DNA from: a bacterium
GTDB lineage: Bacteria; UBA8248
Assembly (NCBI GenBank): GCA_965213685.1
Contig: CBDBZY010000031.1
Location: 128,001 to 192,000 of the forward strand
Reading direction: 5' to 3'
DNA length: 64,000 nt
Made by a program: the position numbers and the translations under genes. The notes under the pieces are model-generated. The model searched no databases, was not told where the DNA came from, and was given only the letters and a program-made list of their open reading frames with translations. Positions 40,461 to 49,763 of the stretch are shown piece by piece (positions within the stretch are counted from its first letter, which is position 1; the number at the start of each line of letters is the position of its first letter).

Positions 40461-41021
40461 ATGGAAGGTCCCGTTGATGGACACAGCACGTCGACCGTTC
40501 CGGGCGAGCGCGTCATAGACAAGCCGGAACTCCCCCTCAAAGGGCTGTATACGGACAACACCGTCCACGCGGAGATGGTGGAGGGCTCCTTGCAGCTGAA
40601 ACGCGGCACCGCCGGGGAGTTCGAGATATTTTGTGACGAGGGTGCGCACATTGGCGGAACGGCCCGGTATCCCACGCCGATGGCCTATCTGGCGATGGCG
40701 ACGGGATTCTGACTGCTCACCCAGGTGTCGCGGTACGCGCACATGATGAAGCTGACCATCAAAGGGGCGAGCGTCTCGGTTCGGTTCAGAAAAATTCTGG
40801 GCGGCTCCGTTCTGAAGGGAACCGTGTTCAACAAATGGGAGGGCGTGGACACGCATCTGCGGGTGGAATCGGACGAGCCGGAAGAGAAGCTCGCCCATCT
40901 GATAAAAAACGCCAAGAATGGCTGCTTCGCAGAGTGCCTCATCACGGAGCCAGTGCCCCTGACCTCCACCGTGGAAGTGAACGGCAAGCCATTCAGAATC
41001 GAGGGCATAACCGCCGACTAG
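40461..41021 (+). CDS. OsmC-like protein, predicted selenoprotein (TGA at 40710)
   Basis: FCDEGAHIGG...PTPMAYLAMATGF-U-LLTQ...AKNGCFAE in one frame; GAGGAG RBS; SECIS-like hairpin. Confidence 0.87.
40725..40742 (+). promoter_or_regulatory. Putative bacterial SECIS hairpin (OsmC-like gene)
   Basis: GTG-T-CGCG-GTA-CGCG-CAC: 12 nt after UGA, 5' bulged U and apical GU, similar to the E. coli fdhF SECIS layout. Confidence 0.7.
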
Positions 41022-41120
41022 CCCTTGCCCGATACTCAAAAAGGCTCTTGAGTGCTCCACCCAAGAGCGTAGCGCCTTCGTCAGACATTCCATTTTTTGC
41101 CCATCACCGGAGGAATGGCA

Positions 41121-42674
41121 ATGTACGGATTCATCATGCGCGTTGTTCTGCTCGCGACCGTGGCGACCATGGTTTGGGAGGCGGCCCCTCGCCAGTCATA
41201 CGCCGGCAAGAAAGACGACACGCTCGTCGTCGCCCTCCAGCGCGGGATACGCTCGCTCGACAGGCTGTACACCCGAAGGCGCGAGGGGCTGATCTTTGCC
41301 CAGCTGACGGACGACGGCCTGTTTTACGCGGACCCCAAAACGCTCCGATTCATTCCCCTGGCGGCGAAGTCCCACAAATTCCTGGATCCGAAAACGCTGG
41401 ACGTCACCGTGCGCGAGGGGGTGAAATTCCACGACGGCAGCCCCCTGAACGCCGATGACGTCGTCTACACGTACAACTGGGTGCTCAACAAAAAGAGCAA
41501 GTCCCGCAACACCAAGCGCGTCAGGCGCTGGCTGAAAAGCGTCGAGAAGGTGGGGCCCATGAAAGTCCGCTTCCGGCTGAAGCGCCCCTACCCCCTGGCG
41601 CTTCGGGATATGGCCATCTCCATTTACCTGAGGAAAAAGAACGCCTATCACGCAGGCGGCGGAAAACGAGGAAACCGCAAGGCGATGACGAATGCGCTGA
41701 ACGGTTTGGGGCCATACAGGGTGGTGGATTTCGACCCGGGAAAGCGAATCGTCCTGGAGCGCTTTGAGGGGTATTACAGGTCCAGCCCCAAGCCGTTTCC
41801 CGCCATCAGGAGGATAGAGGCGCGGACCATTCCGGACTGGGGAACCCAGCAGGCGGAACTCATGAGCGGCGGCGTGCAATGGATGTACAGCGTGCCCACG
41901 GACATCGCGGAGAACATCGGCAAAACGCCGCTGGCGCAACACATCGCCGGCCCCTCCCTGCGCGTCGGGTTCGTCATCCTGGACGCCATCGGCTACACGG
42001 GGAGAAACAACCCGCTGACGAAGCTGGAAGTTCGCCAGGCGATGAACCACGCCATCAACCGCGAGGCGATCGTCCGGCACATCGTGAAAGGCTCCTCGAA
42101 GGTCATCCACTCCGCATGCCATCCGGTGCAGTTCGGCTGCGCCCAGGACGTGAAGAAATACGACTACAACCCGCAGAAAGCGAAAGCGCTCCTGGCAAAG
42201 GCGGGATACGAAAACGGATTCGCGTTTGAGCTGTGGGCGTATCGCGAAAAAAGCGTGGCCGAGGCCATCACGGCCGACCTCCACAAGGTCGGCATCCGCG
42301 CCAAGCTGCGCTACGTGAAGCTCTCCACGCTGTCGAGAGCGAGAAAGAGCAGGGAGATTCCCGCGTATTTCGCCACCTGGGGCTCCGGCAGCACTGCGGA
42401 CACCGCCGCCATCGCCACCTTCCATTTCTCGCCGACGACGAACAGGAACCTCTCCCGGGACAAGGAGGTGGAAAAATACGTCATGGCGGCGGAGGGGACG
42501 CTGGACCCCGCGAAACGCAAAGAGGCCTACGCCCGCGCCCTCCGGCTCATCGCGGAAAGGGCGCTGTGGATTCCCCTGTACTCTTTTACGCTCAACTACC
42601 TGACGTCCAACGATCTGGCGTTCGAGGCACCCAAGGACGGCCTGCCCAGATTGTTTCTCGCAAGGTGGAAATAG
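41121..42674 (+). CDS. ABC transporter substrate-binding protein, family 5 (peptide/nickel type)
   Basis: VREGVKFHDGSPLNADDVVYT, GLGPY, VRQAMNHAINRE. Confidence 0.92.
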   Translation: MYGFIMRVVLLATVATMVWEAAPRQSYAGKKDDTLVVALQRGIRSLDRLYTRRREGLIFAQLTDDGLFYADPKTLRFIPLAAKSHKFLDPKTLDVTVREGVKFHDGSPLNADDVVYTYNWVLNKKSKSRNTKRVRRWLKSVEKVGPMKVRFRLKRPYPLALRDMAISIYLRKKNAYHAGGGKRGNRKAMTNALNGLGPYRVVDFDPGKRIVLERFEGYYRSSPKPFPAIRRIEARTIPDWGTQQAELMSGGVQWMYSVPTDIAENIGKTPLAQHIAGPSLRVGFVILDAIGYTGRNNPLTKLEVRQAMNHAINREAIVRHIVKGSSKVIHSACHPVQFGCAQDVKKYDYNPQKAKALLAKAGYENGFAFELWAYREKSVAEAITADLHKVGIRAKLRYVKLSTLSRARKSREIPAYFATWGSGSTADTAAIATFHFSPTTNRNLSRDKEVEKYVMAAEGTLDPAKRKEAYARALRLIAERALWIPLYSFTLNYLTSNDLAFEAPKDGLPRLFLARWK

Positions 42675-42798
42675 GGAAGAGCGCGTTTGCTGCGGAACGT
42701 CATCCGCCAAACCGGCCCGTCCGGGAGGGGCGCGCGCGTCTTCCTGGATGGACGAGAGGGCGTTGCGTGAACGACCTCCCGGGTGAGGGAATCCCGCC

Positions 42799-43716
42799 AT
42801 GCTGAAATACGCGGTCCATCGCGGCGTCATGGCCATACTCGTGGCGTTCACCGTCTCCCTGCTCACGTTCATGCTGCTGCATTTCGCGACCGACCCCGCA
42901 TCCGCCATCGCGGGCGAGGACGCGACGCCGGATGAAATCGCGCAAATCCGGGAAGACTACGGCCTCGACAAGCCGCTCCCCGTCCAGTATTACGATTGGC
43001 TGAGCGGCATATTCCAGGGAGATTTCGGGGACAGCTACTACTGGAAAAAACCGGTGGGCGCCCTCATCGTCTCCCACGCCCCGGTCACGATACAACTCTC
43101 CTTGTGGGCGTTCGTGGTCACCATCCTCATCGCCCTTCCCCTCGGCGTCCTGGCCGCCATGCGCCCCAACTCCCTCGTCGATCGCTTCGCACTCTCGGTG
43201 GCCGTCTCCGCCCAGGCGGTGCCCAACTTCTGGCTGGGCCTGATGTGCATCATTCTCTTCTCGGTAAAACTGGGGCTGTTCCCCGTGTCGGGAGACGGCA
43301 CCTGGCTGCATTTCGTGATGCCCGCCATCGTGCTCGGCTCCAGCTCGGTGCCCGCGGTGATGCGCCTGACGCGCACGGGCCTCCTGGACGTCATGTCGTC
43401 AGACTACATCCGCACCGCCCGCTCCAAGGGGTTCCGCGCCACCCGGCTCCTCGTCCGACACGCGCTCAGAAACGCCATACTGCCCGTCGTGAGCGTCCTG
43501 GCCGTACAACTGGGGAACAAACTCGGCGGCTCCGTCATCACCGAGTCGGTGTTTGCGCTCAACGGGCTGGGCCGCCTCACCATCGAGTCCATCATCGGCG
43601 CGGACATCCCGATGGTGCAGATGCTGGTTTTCGTCTTCGCCGTCACGTTCATCGTGCTCAACTATCTGGCGGATCTGCTCAACGCCTGGCTGGATCCGAG
43701 AATCCGTCTGGCTTGA
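42799..43716 (+). CDS. ABC transporter permease (DppB-like)
   Basis: GLDKPLPVQY, GDFGDS, DYIRTARSKG, HALRNA. Confidence 0.92.
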   Translation: MLKYAVHRGVMAILVAFTVSLLTFMLLHFATDPASAIAGEDATPDEIAQIREDYGLDKPLPVQYYDWLSGIFQGDFGDSYYWKKPVGALIVSHAPVTIQLSLWAFVVTILIALPLGVLAAMRPNSLVDRFALSVAVSAQAVPNFWLGLMCIILFSVKLGLFPVSGDGTWLHFVMPAIVLGSSSVPAVMRLTRTGLLDVMSSDYIRTARSKGFRATRLLVRHALRNAILPVVSVLAVQLGNKLGGSVITESVFALNGLGRLTIESIIGADIPMVQMLVFVFAVTFIVLNYLADLLNAWLDPRIRLA

Positions 43717-43724
43717 GGGCGAAC

Positions 43725-44636
43725 ATGACCGCACAAACCGAGGAACGCATTCCGGCCTCCGGGGACGCGGACGACCTGCTGAGTCCGGCAGAGGCGCTCC
43801 AGCTCCGGATCAAGAGCCACAGGGGGCTTTTGATCGGCTTCGGCGTCATCCTCTTCATGGCGCTGCTCGCGGTTCTGGCGCCGTGGATCACCGCGCACGG
43901 GCCCTATGAGCAGACGCTGGCGAACCGGCTTCTCCCGCCCGCGTGGGAGGCGGGCGGAAGGTGGGAGTACCTGCTGGGCACGGACCATCTGGGGCGGGAT
44001 TACCTGAGCAGGCTCCTGTATGGATCCCGCATATCGCTGGCCATCGGCATGGGGGCCGCCACCATTGGCTGCCTGATCGGGGTGCCGATGGGGATTTGCG
44101 CGGGCTACTTTGGCGGCCGCGTGGATCACTTCATCAATTTCATCCTGACGTGCAAGCTCGCCATGCCCGGGCTCGTGCTCACGATGTCCCTGGTTTTTCT
44201 GATCGGCCCCTCGGTTTTCGTGGTGATGGGCATCATCGGCGTGCTCCACTGGTCCTATTATCTGGTGGTCACCAGGGCCGCCACGATGCAGATTCGCCAG
44301 ATAGACTACATCGCGGCGGCCCGCTCCATCGGCAGCAGCAGGAAGCAGCTCGTCTTCTATGAAATCCTTCCCAATCTCCTGAACCAGATCATCGTCATCT
44401 TCACGTTTGAGGTAGGCATCGCCATCCTCTCCGAGGCGGCGCTGTCGTTCCTCGGCGTAGGCATCCAGGCGCCGACCCCCTCCTGGGGGCTGATGATCGC
44501 CGAGGGGAGAAGCGCCATGTTCTACCGGCCCTGGCTCGTCATACTGCCCGGCGTCTTCTTGTTCACCCTGGTCATCGGCACCAACCTCATGGGGGACGGC
44601 ATCCGGGACGTCACCGCTCCGGAGAACAGGAACTAG
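43725..44636 (+). CDS. ABC transporter permease (DppC-like)
   Basis: LGTDHLGRD, YIAAARSIG, EAALSFLG, PSWG. Confidence 0.92.
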   Translation: MTAQTEERIPASGDADDLLSPAEALQLRIKSHRGLLIGFGVILFMALLAVLAPWITAHGPYEQTLANRLLPPAWEAGGRWEYLLGTDHLGRDYLSRLLYGSRISLAIGMGAATIGCLIGVPMGICAGYFGGRVDHFINFILTCKLAMPGLVLTMSLVFLIGPSVFVVMGIIGVLHWSYYLVVTRAATMQIRQIDYIAAARSIGSSRKQLVFYEILPNLLNQIIVIFTFEVGIAILSEAALSFLGVGIQAPTPSWGLMIAEGRSAMFYRPWLVILPGVFLFTLVIGTNLMGDGIRDVTAPENRN

Positions 44637-44639
44637 GCG

Positions 44640-46638
44640 ATGCGCGCAGACTCCCCCTTCTTTCAGGTCTCCAACCTCAGCGTGGACATCCCGCTCGGGG
44701 CGGGGGACCTCCATGCGGTGCGGAACGTGGATTTCTCCCTGCGCAAGGGGGAGGTGCTCGGAATCGTGGGCGAATCCGGCTCGGGAAAATCGATGACCGC
44801 CCTGGCCGTCATGGGTTTGCTGCCCCGACACGCCCGACGGACGGCGGACGTGATGCGCCTGAATGAAAGCAATCTGCTGGAAATGTCCGACCAGGAGATG
44901 GCGCAGCGGATTCGCGGCAACCGCATCGCCATGATTTTCCAGGAGCCGATGACCTCGCTCAATCCCGTCTACACCATCGGCCGGCAACTCTCGGAAACCA
45001 TCATCCTCCCACCAGCGAACGCCTAGAAAACAGGCGGAGGAGCGCGCCGTCCACCTGCTGGAGAAAGTGGGGATTCCGGACGCAAAAAATCGATTGCGCC
45101 AATATCCGCATCAGCTCTCCGGCGGCCAAAGGCAGCGCGTGATGATCGCCATGTCGCTGATGAACGAACCGGAACTCATCATAGCGGACGAGCCCACCAC
45201 GGCACTCGACGTGACGATTCAGGCCCAGATACTCCTGCTCCTCGTGGAGCTGCAAAAGGAGATGGGCACCTCCATGATCCTCATCACCCACGATCTGGGC
45301 ATCATCGCGAGGACGGCGAACCAGGTCGCCGTGATGTATGGGGGAGAAATCGTGGAGCGGGGAATGACGAAGCCCGTTTTCGAGAATCCGAAACACCCCT
45401 ATACGAGAGGGCTGCTCTCCTGCATCCCGGAATCGGGCCATTCGCGCACCGGCCGAAGGCTGGGCTCCATCCCCGGCGTGGTGCCCTCCATGGTGGGCGA
45501 CGTCGCGGGCTGCGCATTCGCCAGCCGCTGCGGACTCGTGCGCCCCGAGTGCCGGACATCCCCTCCCCCGCTGCGCATTCTGGGGGACGACAGAAACTAT
45601 CGCTGCGTGCTGTCGGAACGAGACCTCCCCGACGAGCGGGAACGAAGCGGCCGGGAAGAAACGGCGGCGACCGGCCGCGCGCAAAGCACCCCCAGCCTCC
45701 TGCGCGTGGAAGACGTGCGCTGCGCTTTTCAAATCAAGCCGAACGTCTTCTCCGCCACCAGGCAGTTGCGCGCGGTGGACGGCGTCTCCCTGGACATCCG
45801 GAAAGGAGAGGTGCTCGCCCTCGTGGGCGAGTCCGGGTGCGGCAAGACGACCCTGGCCAAGATACTGCTCGCCCTGCAGCCGGCGAATGCGGGAGAGGTG
45901 TTTCTGGACGGCGACAAGATGGGGGCGCTAAAAGGCAGGGAGCGGGCCCGGCGGATACAGCCCGTTTTCCAGGACCCGTATTCCTCCCTGAACCCGCGCA
46001 AGACGATCGGACAGATCATTCGCAGGCCCCTGGACGTCCACCAGGTGGGCACGACCCGCGAAAGACGCGAAGAGTTGGAGCGCATGATGGCGCTCGTCGG
46101 CCTGCCCAGGCGCCTGACGCACCGATACCCCAGCCAGGTTTCCGGCGGACAGAGGCAGCGCGTCGCCATCGCGCGCGCCATCATCATGAAGCCCGACATC
46201 CTGATTTGCGACGAACCCACCTCCGCACTGGACGTCTCCGTTCAATCCCAGATACTGAACCTTCTCCTGGACCTGCAGGAGGAGCTGGGCCTTACCTACC
46301 TCCTCATCACGCACGACCTGTCCGTCGTGGAATACATGGCCACGCGGGTGGCGGTGATGTATCTGGGCGAGATTGTCGAGATGGGAAAAACCAGCCGCAT
46401 CTTTCGGGCACCGCAACATCCATACACAAAAGCCCTGCTGAAATCCGTCCTCTCGCTCAACACGGAGGCGGGCATCCCCGACAACCGGATGGGGCACAGC
46501 TACCCGAATCCCCTGGCGGTTCCCCCCGGGTGCCGCTTCCACCCGAGATGCCCCGAAGCCATGCCCCACTGCTCGAAACGGGCGCCGACGCTGCGGCACA
46601 ACGGCTCCGATTCCGTTCGCTGCCTGCTGTATGAATGA
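44640..46638 (+). CDS. Fused double ABC ATPase (DppD/F-like), apparent frameshift near 45008
   Basis: GESGSGKS and GESGCGKT Walker A motifs, two SGGQRQR, DEPT, C-terminal Cys-rich oligopeptide-transporter tails. Confidence 0.9.
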
Positions 46639-46687: not shown

Positions 46688-47608
46688 CTAGGGCGTGCCG
46701 ATGAGCTCCATGGCGCGCGCGGCCATGCCGGAGTTGCTGTGCCCCACGTCGGGGACGATCTCCAGCGCCCATCGATACGGGTACCCCTTTCGCCTGGCGT
46801 ACGCCTTTGCGCGGGCGTAAAAATTCCTGCCCCGCGCCAGGCGGTGCGCTCCCTGGGCGACGGCCTCATCCTCCAGGTTGAGCGACGGGTGGCGGGGGTC
46901 GTCGTCTTCCGCGCCCAGCAATATCGTGAGGCGCGCCGCGAGAGATTCCCGCAAACTCGCCGCGCTCAAACCGATGTTGGATATCCCGTAGGGAATCTCC
47001 ACGCCCTCATCCAGCATGGTGTACCAGCCCGGGTTCGCCGCAACGGCCCGCCGGATGCGGGCGCGGGGGTGGAAAAGGACGAGCCGATGCACGAACTGCC
47101 CGCCGGCCGAGTGCCCGTAAATGTCATACCGCGCCGCTTTCAGTCCGTTGGCGGTGCGAACAAAATCGAACAGCTTCTCGAGAATCGTGAACGTCCACTC
47201 CGCCCGGGGCTTGCGCTTGCCGTTCGGGCGATACACGTTGCCCAAATGATACCGCCACGCGCCTGGAAAGTGCTCGTCCGAGAATTCGGGAACCAGCAAA
47301 ACAAACCCGTTGACGTTGGCGAAAGGACGCCACTCATCCCTGTATTGCTCTGCGTCGCGGCCGTTCCCGTGCATGACGAACACCACGGGGGCGGATTTTT
47401 CCACGCCCTCGGGCCAGTGGTACCAGACCTCGACGGGCAAGCCGGGGTTGCTCCCCCCCTCTTCAAACACAAAGCTGCCCGTGCCCATCTTCATAGCAGG
47501 CTTCCCGCTCTCAGGCTCCGCCTTCGACACGGCGCCTCCCGCCAGAAAGGCGGACATCAAAACGATGACGAATCGACGAGAGAACCCGCCCTTCTCCCCG
47601 GCGTCCAT
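46688..47608 (-). CDS. Exported alpha/beta hydrolase
   Basis: VMHG, YGHSAGGQFVHR nucleophile elbow, VGH catalytic His. Confidence 0.82.
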   Translation of the reverse strand: MDAGEKGGFSRRFVIVLMSAFLAGGAVSKAEPESGKPAMKMGTGSFVFEEGGSNPGLPVEVWYHWPEGVEKSAPVVFVMHGNGRDAEQYRDEWRPFANVNGFVLLVPEFSDEHFPGAWRYHLGNVYRPNGKRKPRAEWTFTILEKLFDFVRTANGLKAARYDIYGHSAGGQFVHRLVLFHPRARIRRAVAANPGWYTMLDEGVEIPYGISNIGLSAASLRESLAARLTILLGAEDDDPRHPSLNLEDEAVAQGAHRLARGRNFYARAKAYARRKGYPYRWALEIVPDVGHSNSGMAARAMELIGTP

Positions 47609-47758: not shown

Positions 47759-47788
47759 TTCACTTCCTGCGCAAGACCGCCGTATAAT
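47759..47788 (+). promoter_or_regulatory. Sigma70-type promoter for the Sec-DUF442 gene
   Basis: TTCACT, 18-bp spacer, perfect TATAAT in a GC-rich context. Confidence 0.5.
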
Positions 47789-47845
47789 GCGCCCGCACGC
47801 CCCGGGGAGGAATGGAGACATCCGCTCATTTTCGATGGAGTTCGC

Positions 47846-48298
47846 ATGGACTATTTCGACGCTTCCCAAGACATCTCCTTCGGCTCGCAGCCCACGCTGG
47901 ACGACCTCAAGGCGCTCGCCGCCAGAGGCGTCAAAACCATCATCAACACCCGTTTTCCGGACGAGGAGCAGGGCGCGCTTCCGCCGGCGCGCGCCAAGGC
48001 CGAGGCCGAGGCGCTGGGGATGGCATACCTCAACATCCCCGTCTCGCCCGTCGCGTTCACCGACGACTCCCTCGCCGAGGTGAGCCGGGCGCTGCGCGAG
48101 GCGAGGTCCGACGGCCCCGCCTTCGTGCACTGAAAGGCGACGGGGCGAGCCGGGATTTGCTCGCTACATCACCTGGCGGAGGAGAATGATTGGACGGGCG
48201 ATGAGATGGAAAGGGCGGCGGACGCCACCGGCTACGACTGGCGCGAGGCGAGGCTCGCGGCCAAGTTCCGGGAATTTTTCGACAGACGGGGGCGATGA
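47846..48298 (+). CDS. DUF442/Blh-like phosphatase-fold (sulfurtransferase) protein, predicted selenoprotein (TGA at 48131)
   Basis: QPT..DL..LA..GVKTIINTR.PDEE, YLNIPV, GPAFVH-U-KATGRAG, then EMERAADATGYD; the frame stays open for 54 codons after the TGA. Confidence 0.83.
48144..48165 (+). promoter_or_regulatory. Putative SECIS hairpin (DUF442 gene)
   Basis: GGCGAGC-CGGGATTT-GCTCGCT stem begins 10 nt after UGA; G-containing loop. Confidence 0.55.
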
Positions 48299-48457
48299 GC
48301 GCCCCGTCGGCCGGGTGCGGGAGGGCAGGGGGGGGTCTTGTGCACGTCGTTCCCCACCGGGAGCGCATCCCCGCCGGTCTCATTCCTCGCCCAGAGGCGT
48401 CCCGCGCGCGCTTGGGGGCCGCTTCCGTCAAACTCCCCCCCCTCCTTTGGAGGAACC

Positions 48458-48874
48458 CTAGAGGAACTCGTGCACCTCGGCGAACATCCCCTTCACGATT
48501 CCCCCGCTCAAGTGACCTACCAGGACTTCCTCCGGCCGATACGGCCCCCCGCTCAGCGCCAGGTGGAGGTGGATATACGGCTGGGGGCCATCCCAGTTTT
48601 CGTCCCCCCGAACGGCAGGGGGCTTCTCCGGCCAGCTGATGTTGCCCACGGCGAGGAGCTCGCGCCAGTCGTCGAAGCGTCGCCGGGCGGAGGGGCCGAT
48701 GATCTCCCGGAAGCCGGTGCGGACGTCGGATTCCTTCAGGGCGCCGAACACGATGAGCGAGGCGCTTCGTATGTTCTCCTCCTTCACGAACCGGTGGAAC
48801 TCCCCGAAAAAATCATCGTCCTCATCAAATTCCAGATGAAAGACGCGGCCCAGGCGCTTCTGCTCCGCTCGCAT
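48458..48874 (-). CDS. PPC/DUF296 domain protein
   Basis: FGAL, ELLAVGNI, PYIHLHLAL, VGHL. Confidence 0.8.
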   Translation of the reverse strand: MRAEQKRLGRVFHLEFDEDDDFFGEFHRFVKEENIRSASLIVFGALKESDVRTGFREIIGPSARRRFDDWRELLAVGNISWPEKPPAVRGDENWDGPQPYIHLHLALSGGPYRPEEVLVGHLSGGIVKGMFAEVHEFL

Positions 48875-49763
48875 GTCCCATTCCCCCCCTCACCTCCGCG
48901 TAGAGGTTCTCCAGACCCCGCCGAAAGGTCCTTCTCCTGTGCTCCACCCAGGACGCGCCCCGCGACCGGTCGGACCAGAAAAATTTCTCGAACGCGGCGT
49001 CCGCGACGGCCTCCTCGCGGGCCATTCCCCTCCCCAGCAAGCTCTCCATGATCTCCCACATCTCCACGAAGTCGTTCCTGAGCCTCCGGACGCCCTCCAT
49101 TCCGCATATTTCTCCGTGCCCGGGAACGACATATTCCACCGACAGCCCCTCGATCCACTCGAGTGCCCCGATCCATTGCCGAAACCGGGCCTCCCGCATC
49201 CCCGGCCCCGGCTCGTTGATAACCACGTCGCCCGTGAAGATGACGCCTTCCTCGGGCACGTACACCGAACTGCAGGCGGGCGTGTGGCCCCCCAGACAAA
49301 AAACCTCGAACGTCAGGGGGTGGAGGTGAAGCGTCATCTCCTTTTCAAAGCACACCTGCGGCAGGGGGAGGACGGCCTCCGCGATTTCGTTCGCCTCCTC
49401 GCGTTCGCCGATGTCGTTGAGGGTGTTGACGAAGGTTTCGCGTCCCGCGCGGGAGTTCGCCTCGGCGGCGGCGAGCTCCTCGAAAACACGCCGGGGGGCG
49501 ATGGAAACCACCCCCGCATCCTCAATGAACGCCGCTCCGATGACGTGGTCGCCGTGATAGTCCGTCGCGATGCGGTATCGAACGCCTTTCGGGCTGAGGG
49601 TTCGAAGCTCCCCCTGCCAGTGGCGCGAATCGGAGGGCCGCACGGGGCAATCCACGAGAACCACGCCGTCGGCGGTAATCCCCGCTCCCACATTCGCCCA
49701 CAGATACTCCGTCTCCGCCACCAGGTGCTCGCTCAGCCGCCGCATGACGCACATCCCGTCCAT
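48825..49763 (-). CDS. MBL-fold metallo-hydrolase (cyclase-like)
   Basis: TDYHGDH, GGHT, FTGD, VPGHG; C-terminal boundary uncertain. Confidence 0.85.
   Translation of the reverse strand: MDGMCVMRRLSEHLVAETEYLWANVGAGITADGVVLVDCPVRPSDSRHWQGELRTLSPKGVRYRIATDYHGDHVIGAAFIEDAGVVSIAPRRVFEELAAAEANSRAGRETFVNTLNDIGEREEANEIAEAVLPLPQVCFEKEMTLHLHPLTFEVFCLGGHTPACSSVYVPEEGVIFTGDVVINEPGPGMREARFRQWIGALEWIEGLSVEYVVPGHGEICGMEGVRRLRNDFVEMWEIMESLLGRGMAREEAVADAAFEKFFWSDRSRGASWVEHRRRTFRRGLENLYAEVRGGMGHASGAEAPGPRLSSGI

Follow-up and report, generated by a model that had tools for sequence, protein, structure and literature searches.

A UGA codon at the catalytic position of a DUF442-fold gene

The window analyzed here is a 64,000-nucleotide stretch of bacterial DNA (GenBank assembly GCA_965213685.1, contig CBDBZY010000031.1, positions 128,001 to 192,000 of the forward strand), and the gene under study encodes a DUF442-fold protein with an in-frame UGA codon. 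On the plus strand of the window, an open reading frame (ORF) at 47846-48133 comprises 95 codons and ends in FVH-TGA. If this TGA is read through, the same frame adds 54 codons, continuing as KATGRAGICSLHHLAEENDWTGDEMERAADATGYDW... up to a second TGA at 48296-48298, and yields a coding sequence (47846-48298, +) for 150 amino acids plus the terminal TGA. Both the 95-residue ORF and the open frame behind it had been pointed out in a preliminary description of this DNA, and both are present as described. The UGA at codon 96 (48131-48133, +) is read here as selenocysteine (Sec) and would occupy the catalytic position of an H-U-x4-R loop. Judging from sequence comparisons and structure modeling, this is almost certainly a genuine selenoprotein gene, in which UGA-96 encodes Sec at the catalytic position of a DUF442 domain, related in fold to protein tyrosine phosphatases (PTPs), within a stand-alone protein of 150 residues. 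The whole of our preferred explanation, which combines Sec decoding with a role in sulfur transfer, we consider probable.

The start of the gene is accompanied by a Shine-Dalgarno-like GGAG (47837-47840, +), which can be read directly in the sequence 5 nt before the ATG. Further upstream, a sigma-70-like promoter site, TTCACT-18 nt-TATAAT, is located at 47759-47788 (+); this is a consensus match only, with 10 of 12 consensus positions matched and 1 site found compared to 0.1 expected from shuffled sequences. Public gene calls stop at residue 95: among 55 matches in a word-indexed protein search, 53 were exactly 95 amino acids long, covering the first 63% of the query, which implies that they have been cut at the same codon. 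Among the public source names displayed was 'sulfur transferase domain-containing protein [Nitrospinae bacterium]'.

Conservation of the TGA and of the downstream coding sequence

A six-frame search of 51 genomes of the phylum returned matches in 36 of them, and 57 of the 59 match rows contained an in-frame TGA. Two copies of the DUF442 selenoprotein gene are present in most genomes of the window's genus. The in-frame TGA at codon 96 was found in all 50 loci that were translated and in 2 of 2 further loci (52/52), all of them from a single phylum and from assemblies titled Nitrospinota, Nitrospinaceae, or Tectomicrobia. The TGA is thus not a peculiarity of this assembly; had it been one, this would have refuted the proposal of the preliminary description. 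The same holds for the motif H-U-x3-G-R-A-G-[IVL]-C-S-L, which occurs in all 50 translated loci and in the 2 further ones. The two paralogues share a protein identity of only 43-48%, and both retain the TGA; the second paralogue in the genome of the window (C26:35187-35633, +; locus L047:2501-2953) is 43% identical and possesses the same hairpin downstream of the TGA. Furthermore, contigs from three runs of one study are identical to the stretch, while a contig from another study differs in 9 letters over positions 48090-48392 and keeps the TGA.

Beyond the TGA, all 50 loci can be aligned over their full length, with sequences that are 43-84% identical. For 25 orthologous loci, dN/dS (NG86) amounted to 0.23 after the TGA (codons 108-135) and to 0.17 before it (codons 2-95), and the mean pairwise differences at the three codon positions were 0.119, 0.115, and 0.285 for codons 108-135, as compared to 0.125, 0.106, and 0.358 for codons 2-95. 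The excess at third positions together with the low dN/dS after the TGA indicates that the downstream region evolves as protein, under purifying selection. Moreover, some of the DUF442 selenoprotein genes, including that of the window, end in TGA; since TGA also terminates several of these genes, the codon keeps its function as a stop and has not turned into a sense codon.

The alternative that the TGA is a true stop, in which case no Sec is inserted and the gene is truncated, split, a pseudogene, or recoded in some other way, has in its favor that public gene calls break off at residue 95 and that selD appears frame-shifted in this assembly. However, purifying selection acts on the downstream frame across the divergent sequences described above, and only with the residues that follow the TGA is the domain, predicted with high confidence, complete, so that a 95-residue product would be left without the active-site loop and three helices. 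In addition, position 97, directly after the TGA, is mostly Lys or Arg (K/R in the window and in most loci), which leaves no conserved start codon for the downstream part, and the use of TGA as terminator in several of the same genes speaks against sense reassignment. We regard a true stop as very improbable.

An extra in-frame TGA was observed in one copy of the second paralogue (locus L071; G024:C5:285643-286089, minus strand), where it is located at the invariant Trp132 column (FD*EN); this copy is possibly a pseudogene or affected by a sequencing error.

A conserved hairpin follows the UGA

A hairpin resembling a selenocysteine insertion sequence (SECIS) is located at 48144-48165 (+). It consists of a 7-bp stem (48144-48150 paired with 48159-48165) and an 8-nt loop (48151-48158, CGGGAUUU), and is separated from the UGA by a 10-nt spacer, the first paired nucleotide being the 11th. 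Thus, the hairpin that had been claimed to start 10 nt after the UGA is real. The minimal SECIS of Escherichia coli fdhF is likewise an upper stem-loop, located 11 nt from the UGA. As expected of a bacterial SECIS, the stem-loop lies just past the UGA and its apical loop contains a G. GC-rich hairpins that begin 10-12 nt after the UGA were also found for selD and for the gene of an OsmC-like selenoprotein in the same genome.

All 7 stem pairs are unbroken in 50 of 50 loci, and the sole variation is a change from G-U to A-U at two pairs. Gly100, Ala102, Gly103, and Ser106 are each encoded by one and the same codon in 49-50 of the 50 loci (third-position entropy of 0), compared to 0.67-1.85 bits at the third positions of 26 other conserved columns with degenerate codons. 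The codon for Arg101 (48146-48148, +), the arginine of the U-x4-R loop, which is invariant in alignment A2 and nearly invariant in alignment A3, is only CGA or CGG, both of which preserve the stem pair (A-U or G-U). Since these synonymous sites are frozen across paralogues that are only 43-48% identical, the pattern indicates selection on the RNA. The support for the hairpin therefore rests on conservation and not on folding energy.

Selenocysteine machinery of the genome

The genes selA (564 bits) and selB (370 bits) are adjacent to each other on contig C5 and both score above their cut-offs, as does a tRNA-Sec with 78.6 bits. Moreover, selD, also over its cut-off, was found approximately 26 kb before the start of the window (G000:C31:101342-102073, locus L068; minus strand), with a Sec TGA of its own in the context ...VKAGG-U-GSK.... 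Hence, selA, selB, selC, and selD are all encoded in the genome that carries the DUF442 selenoprotein gene, with selD being split over several frames in this assembly. Within the phylum, selB exceeded the cut-off in 48 of 51 genomes, and the remaining three genomes are 67-91% complete.

Domain assignment, fold, and active site

With U read as C, the read-through protein matches PF04273 (BLH_phosphatase/DUF442) over residues 7-102 with 46.8 bits, above the gathering cut-off of 26.1. The match to TIGR01244 spans residues 8-133 and reaches 53.2 bits, short of the curated cut-off of 85.85; that to the Blh model NF040641 spans residues 7-136 and likewise stays under the curated threshold. Thus, of the two model assignments that had been proposed as a check, membership in PF04273 was obtained, while that in TIGR01244 was not, and the protein belongs to a distinct subfamily of the DUF442 superfamily rather than to TIGR01244 itself. 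Furthermore, the sequence after the TGA does align with the C-terminal part of DUF442, extending to residue 133 for TIGR01244 and to residue 136 for NF040641, as the preliminary description required.

An AlphaFold2 model of the read-through protein, based on an 88-sequence alignment, reached a pLDDT of 96.7 and a pTM of 0.91. It predicts a strand (residues 92-95) followed by a loop and a helix (residues 100-114), with three further helices formed by the part after the TGA; according to this model, the 95-residue product would be devoid of the active-site loop and of these helices. A Foldseek search of the PDB with this model resulted in 222 matches at E <= 0.001, of which the DUF442 structures 3gxh and 3gxg (Shewanella putrefaciens) and 2f46 (NMA1982 of Neisseria meningitidis) rank first, with TM scores of 0.69-0.77 over 144-150 alignment columns. 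These structures have a sequence identity of 20-25% to the window protein and a Cys where the latter has Sec; U96 aligns with the loop Cys of 2f46, the best match by sequence among solved structures. In 2f46, a Cys follows directly after the Arg (C-R-T-G-T-R-C-S), whereas in the window protein it is found four residues after the Arg. Dual-specificity phosphatases follow the DUF442 structures in the ranking, confirming a PTP-like alpha/beta fold.

This similarity raises the possibility that the protein is an enzyme of the PTP superfamily acting on phosphate or arsenate, for instance an arsenate reductase or a phosphatase for proteins or small molecules, with Sec as nucleophile. TpbA, PFA-DSP1, PTPMT1, and Tk-PTP share the overall fold with TM scores of 0.6-0.7 and have their nucleophile at the same strand-loop-helix junction, and weak Pfam matches to PTP-NADK, PTP-SAK, and Tc-R-P were obtained. 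Moreover, DUF442 structures have been deposited as 'putative phosphatase', one of them being described as phosphate-bound (PMC4409338), and arsenate reductases of another fold are known selenoproteins (PMC13188914, Table 1). However, the loop differs from that of dual-specificity and other PTP-type phosphatases: instead of H-C-x5-R-(S/T), all 50 loci read H-U-x4-R-A, i.e., with x4 in place of x5 and without Ser/Thr after the Arg. In general, a six-residue loop, as in rhodanese, favors sulfur, and a seven-residue loop, as in Cdc25, favors phosphate. Neither the invariant nor the nearly invariant columns of alignments A2 and A3 include an Asp that could serve as general acid, and the DUF442 domains that have been characterized are sulfur transferases. 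A phosphate- or arsenate-directed activity is therefore improbable, if somewhat less so than a true stop at the TGA. The PF00581 (rhodanese) profile did not match the protein either, so that its likeness to rhodanese concerns the loop and the presumed chemistry only.

Sec/Cys pairs, relatives, and distribution

An exhaustive profile-free search of 1.84 billion representative sequences yielded 1587 matches at E <= 0.001, and 148 of the listed matches were aligned. In the column of U96, 134 of these 148 homologues have Cys, 5 have Ser, and 1 has Asp; the 8 others do not cover the column, including 3 that end exactly at ...F[VI]H. One match of the search, P0099, has 94 amino acids with ...PVFVH at its end and an identity of 42%; forms of this kind might be Sec forms from other phyla. 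Together with the Cys of 2f46, this places U96 at the position of the catalytic Cys of DUF442, as had been proposed. Only one close full-length Cys form was found among the matches listed (P0057), which is 48% identical and reads HCKAIGRAGVCSF; Sec and Cys forms thus alternate in this column between the window protein on the one hand and P0057, 2f46, and the 134 homologues on the other. The loop U-K-A-T-G-R, which had been regarded as atypical, proved to be normal for its own subfamily, since H-C-x4-R-A-G, with differing residues at x, is the reading in many of the listed Cys relatives.

In a maximum-likelihood tree, 50 Sec forms and P0057 constitute one clade with a support of 100/99, with the placement of P0057 inside the clade not being settled. 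As nearest outgroups, the tree places the DUF442 domains of two fusion proteins: in P0060, DUF442 is combined with a metallo-beta-lactamase (MBL) domain and two rhodanese domains, and in P0061 with two rhodanese domains. AhpC-TSA/Redoxin domains fused to DUF442 were found in other Cys relatives (P0067 and P0167).

With respect to the taxonomic range, a scan of one genome each of 185,579 species for the motif GRAG[IV]CSLxH (alignment A2) resulted in 39 confirmed loci, all of which belong to metagenome-assembled genomes (MAGs) titled Nitrospinota, Nitrospinaceae, Candidatus Tectomicrobia, or plain 'bacterium'; this motif scan revealed no members outside the lineage. A search for related loci with the Cys form P0057 alone did not lead to a confirmed locus. 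Within the phylum, a single family accounts for all Sec forms, which are spread over 6 of its genera; the 9 genomes from the three other families have none. The only match in genome G040 was rejected as an orthologue, as it corresponds to a distant Cys-type protein (HCQSANRTG) with a signal-peptide-like N-terminus.

Genomic neighbors and an OsmC-like selenoprotein

In most loci of the genus, a short ORF lies directly upstream of the DUF442 selenoprotein gene. This ORF corresponds to the C-terminal part of an OsmC-related selenoprotein (NF041052), with the motif GFULLTQ appearing on read-through; the OsmC-like selenoprotein itself belongs to an already catalogued family. The copy in the window (40461-41021, +; start approximate) scores 162.1 bits against NF041052 and has its TGA at 40710-40712, again within GFULLTQ. 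With this copy as query, tblastn detected a same-strand OsmC-like gene, containing one in-frame stop, at each of the 21 other orthologous loci of the genus and at 0 of the 29 remaining loci. The gap between its end and the DUF442 start measures 24-28 nt in 17 loci, 76-86 nt in 2 loci, and 211 and 700 nt in 1 locus each.

In the window, the OsmC-like gene is displaced to a position 6.8 kb upstream of the DUF442 gene, and the two are separated by an operon for an ATP-binding cassette (ABC) peptide transporter (41097-46638) and an esterase gene (46688-47608, -). The presence of a separate promoter-like site fits with this displacement. The TATAAT promoter reported in the preliminary description hence exists, but is specific to the rearranged locus, as other members of the genus have the OsmC-like gene approximately 25 nt upstream. 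For the second paralogue and for the single copies in other genera, the DUF442 gene starts about 24-55 nt after a transglutaminase-like gene (PF13369, SirB1-like), next to ilvD. It should be noted that clustering of ORFs from the flanking regions was noisy, owing to GC-rich shadow ORFs on both strands, and that neighbors were therefore settled by family scans and tblastn.

The arrangement with the OsmC-like gene suggests the main alternative role, in which the DUF442 selenoprotein would be a redox partner: a selenenylsulfide between Sec96 and Cys105 would serve to reduce or recycle the OsmC-like selenoprotein or another thiol peroxidase, forming a two-selenoprotein peroxide relay. Besides the invariable strand and mostly short distance in the genus loci, the AhpC-TSA/Redoxin fusions of P0067 and P0167 are in favor of such a role, as is Cys105 (48158-48160, +), a candidate resolving cysteine that all 50 Sec forms have in common and that is present in the closest Cys form P0057, while most of the listed Cys homologues that are more distant have another residue in this column. 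However, the Cys105 codon is situated in the 3' arm of the hairpin, which makes its invariance ambiguous, as it may reflect a constraint on the RNA. Moreover, the second paralogue and the copies of other genera follow the transglutaminase-like gene instead of an OsmC-like gene, the two genes are 6.8 kb apart in the window, and adjacency alone does not establish a partnership. We consider the redox-partner role unlikely, albeit clearly less so than an activity on phosphate or arsenate. The same doubtful standing applies to the dedicated version of this relay, in which the Sec of the OsmC-like protein would attack a peroxide or persulfide and Sec96/Cys105 would regenerate the OsmC-like protein; if true, it would represent the first natural PTP-fold selenocysteine enzyme, with a reductase activity in place of that of a transferase or phosphatase.

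A proposed role in sulfane sulfur transfer

For the preferred role in sulfur transfer, characterized DUF442 domains provide the closest analogy. The DUF442 domain of Xylella Blh is described as transferring sulfane sulfur from thiosulfate to cyanide or glutathione (GSH) (PMC5823870). In the DUF442 domain of Cupriavidus, Cys94 is reported to be essential and to bear a persulfide within a cationic cradle that includes R99 (C-x4-R), from which the sulfur is handed to sulfite or GSH (PMC6441731, PMC9163753). The spacing U96-x4-R101, together with the prevalence of Lys/Arg at position 97, fits the same cationic cradle. The fold and the C-x4-R loop are common to the window protein, the N-terminal Blh domain of Xylella and Agrobacterium, and the DUF442 domain of the sulfide:quinone oxidoreductase (SQR) of Cupriavidus pinatubonensis; the Cys of the latter two falls on the U96 column, and their C-terminal helices align with those of the window protein. 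Unlike them, the window protein contains Sec, stands alone with 150 amino acids, and is neither fused to nor clustered with a persulfide dioxygenase or SQR; furthermore, it has its own motif H-U-x3-G-R-A-G-[IVL]-C-S-L as well as OsmC-like or transglutaminase-like neighbors, and it scores below the TIGR01244 cut-off. Sec rhodanese-like proteins (PF00581 forms 1, 2, and 4; NF041203; TsoB, NF045694; PMC13188914, Table 1) are comparable in that Sec is located in or beside a sulfurtransferase catalytic motif and was predicted from Sec/Cys pairs and SECIS elements. Their fold, however, is unrelated, as the window protein (P0001) is PTP-like and has no PF00581 match.

In our model, SelB carrying Sec-tRNA(Sec) would bind the hairpin 3' of UGA-96, upon which the ribosome would insert Sec instead of stopping; this decoding is the well-supported part of the model. 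Sec96 occupies the first position of a short loop for anion binding, U-K-A-T-G-R101, which runs on into a helix. As in the Cys relatives, its selenolate might take sulfane sulfur from a donor such as thiosulfate, glutathione persulfide (GSSH), or polysulfide, and the resulting Se-S(H) intermediate could be held by the cationic loop until the sulfur is passed on to a thiol or sulfite; selenium may render both steps faster and the site harder to over-oxidize. A loop that is one residue short for a PTP, in combination with the lack of a conserved Asp, favors sulfur transfer through such a Sec-Se-S intermediate. By analogy to the Cys relatives, we consider this to be the most likely role, with roughly even odds of being correct. 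The chemistry appears plausible, and the OsmC-like protein would be a concrete candidate partner.

Several results weigh against this explanation. For the hairpin, covariation is absent, with 0 of 7 pairs changed on both sides among the 50 sequences, the folding energy of the single sequence is unremarkable for GC-rich DNA (z = -0.41 relative to shuffled sequences), and no Rfam SECIS family was matched, either in a scan of the whole window at gathering thresholds or in a permissive scan of 48090-48230. The TIGR01244 score stays below the curated cut-off, as described above, and the reading frame of selD changes several times in this assembly; these frame changes represent either assembly errors or real damage, and we read the split genes as assembly indels. 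Neither sqr nor pdo was seen nearby, where the neighbors are instead the OsmC-like and transglutaminase-like genes, ilvD, the ABC transporter, and the esterase. Finally, the AhpC/Redoxin fusions of some Cys relatives and the OsmC-like neighbor fit a thiol-redox role equally well.

A setting in H2S oxidation, which the preliminary description had mentioned for DUF442 domains in general, was accordingly not borne out, as sqr and pdo were not seen in the neighborhood and the conserved neighbors are OsmC-like or transglutaminase-like genes. The usual place behind the OsmC-like gene rather suggests a function in the defense against reactive sulfur or oxygen species than one in energy-yielding sulfide oxidation. 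An MBL-fold gene on the other side of the DUF442 gene (48825-49763, -) was rejected as a sulfide-oxidation context, since it matches general MBL/SoxH-related models only (65.8 bits versus a cut-off of 300 bits). Together with a PCC-domain gene (48458-48874, -), this gene is convergent to the DUF442 gene, and neither of the two grouped with the flanking regions of other loci.

Relation to known selenoprotein families

The DUF442 selenoprotein gene is a real, conserved selenoprotein gene and represents a new family within a well-known kind. As the preliminary description had supposed, the family is not among the listed bacterial selenoproteins: it is absent from Table 1 (119 families/subfamilies) of a review from May 2026 (PMC13188914), the text of which contains neither PF04273, TIGR01244, NF040641, or Blh nor the words beta-lactamase, tyrosine, or phosphatase. 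The database BSepDB (PMC13326102) is described as compiling the same literature. NCBIfam has no dedicated model for the DUF442 selenoprotein. We found no paper that links DUF442 with selenoproteins, although supplementary candidate lists (deep-Sep; Deng et al. 2026) may hold the family, and literature searches on selenoproteins of Nitrospina/Nitrospinota or on 'sulfur transferase' selenoproteins retrieved nothing on the DUF442 family. A Geobacter selenoprotein bearing the latter name is presumably of the rhodanese/Sud type. It is listed beside a Wolinella 'sulfur transferase precursor' (PMC1242214).

The PTP-like DUF442 fold thus extends the set of 119 prokaryotic selenoprotein families catalogued in 2026, and the 95-residue truncation would be mended in every genome of the lineage by a family model of its own. 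Moreover, the natural Sec/Cys pair within a C-x4-R cradle offers a handle on the contribution of selenium to persulfide-type chemistry, and the operon with the OsmC-like selenoprotein provides a concrete, testable partner.

Further observations on the assembly

Within the ABC transporter operon, the gene for an oligopeptide-type ATPase (44640-46638, +) is split over two frames, with Walker A encoded in the ORF at 44640-45026 and LSGGQ in the ORF at 45067-46638, which is due to either a frameshift or an assembly indel. The assembly (G000) comprises 7.97 Mb in 71 contigs, compared to 2.9-4.6 Mb for 22 other genomes of the genus; its large size and the split genes suggest a mixed or error-prone origin.

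Three further OsmC-like matches with one in-frame TGA each were found in this assembly (G000:C12:39067-39495, G000:C44:161935-162345, and G000:C31:8853-9248), two of which score above the family cut-off. The genome seems to be rich in selenoprotein genes, and BSepDB (PMC13326102) describes the lineage as selenoprotein-rich already, with 48-54 genes per MAG.

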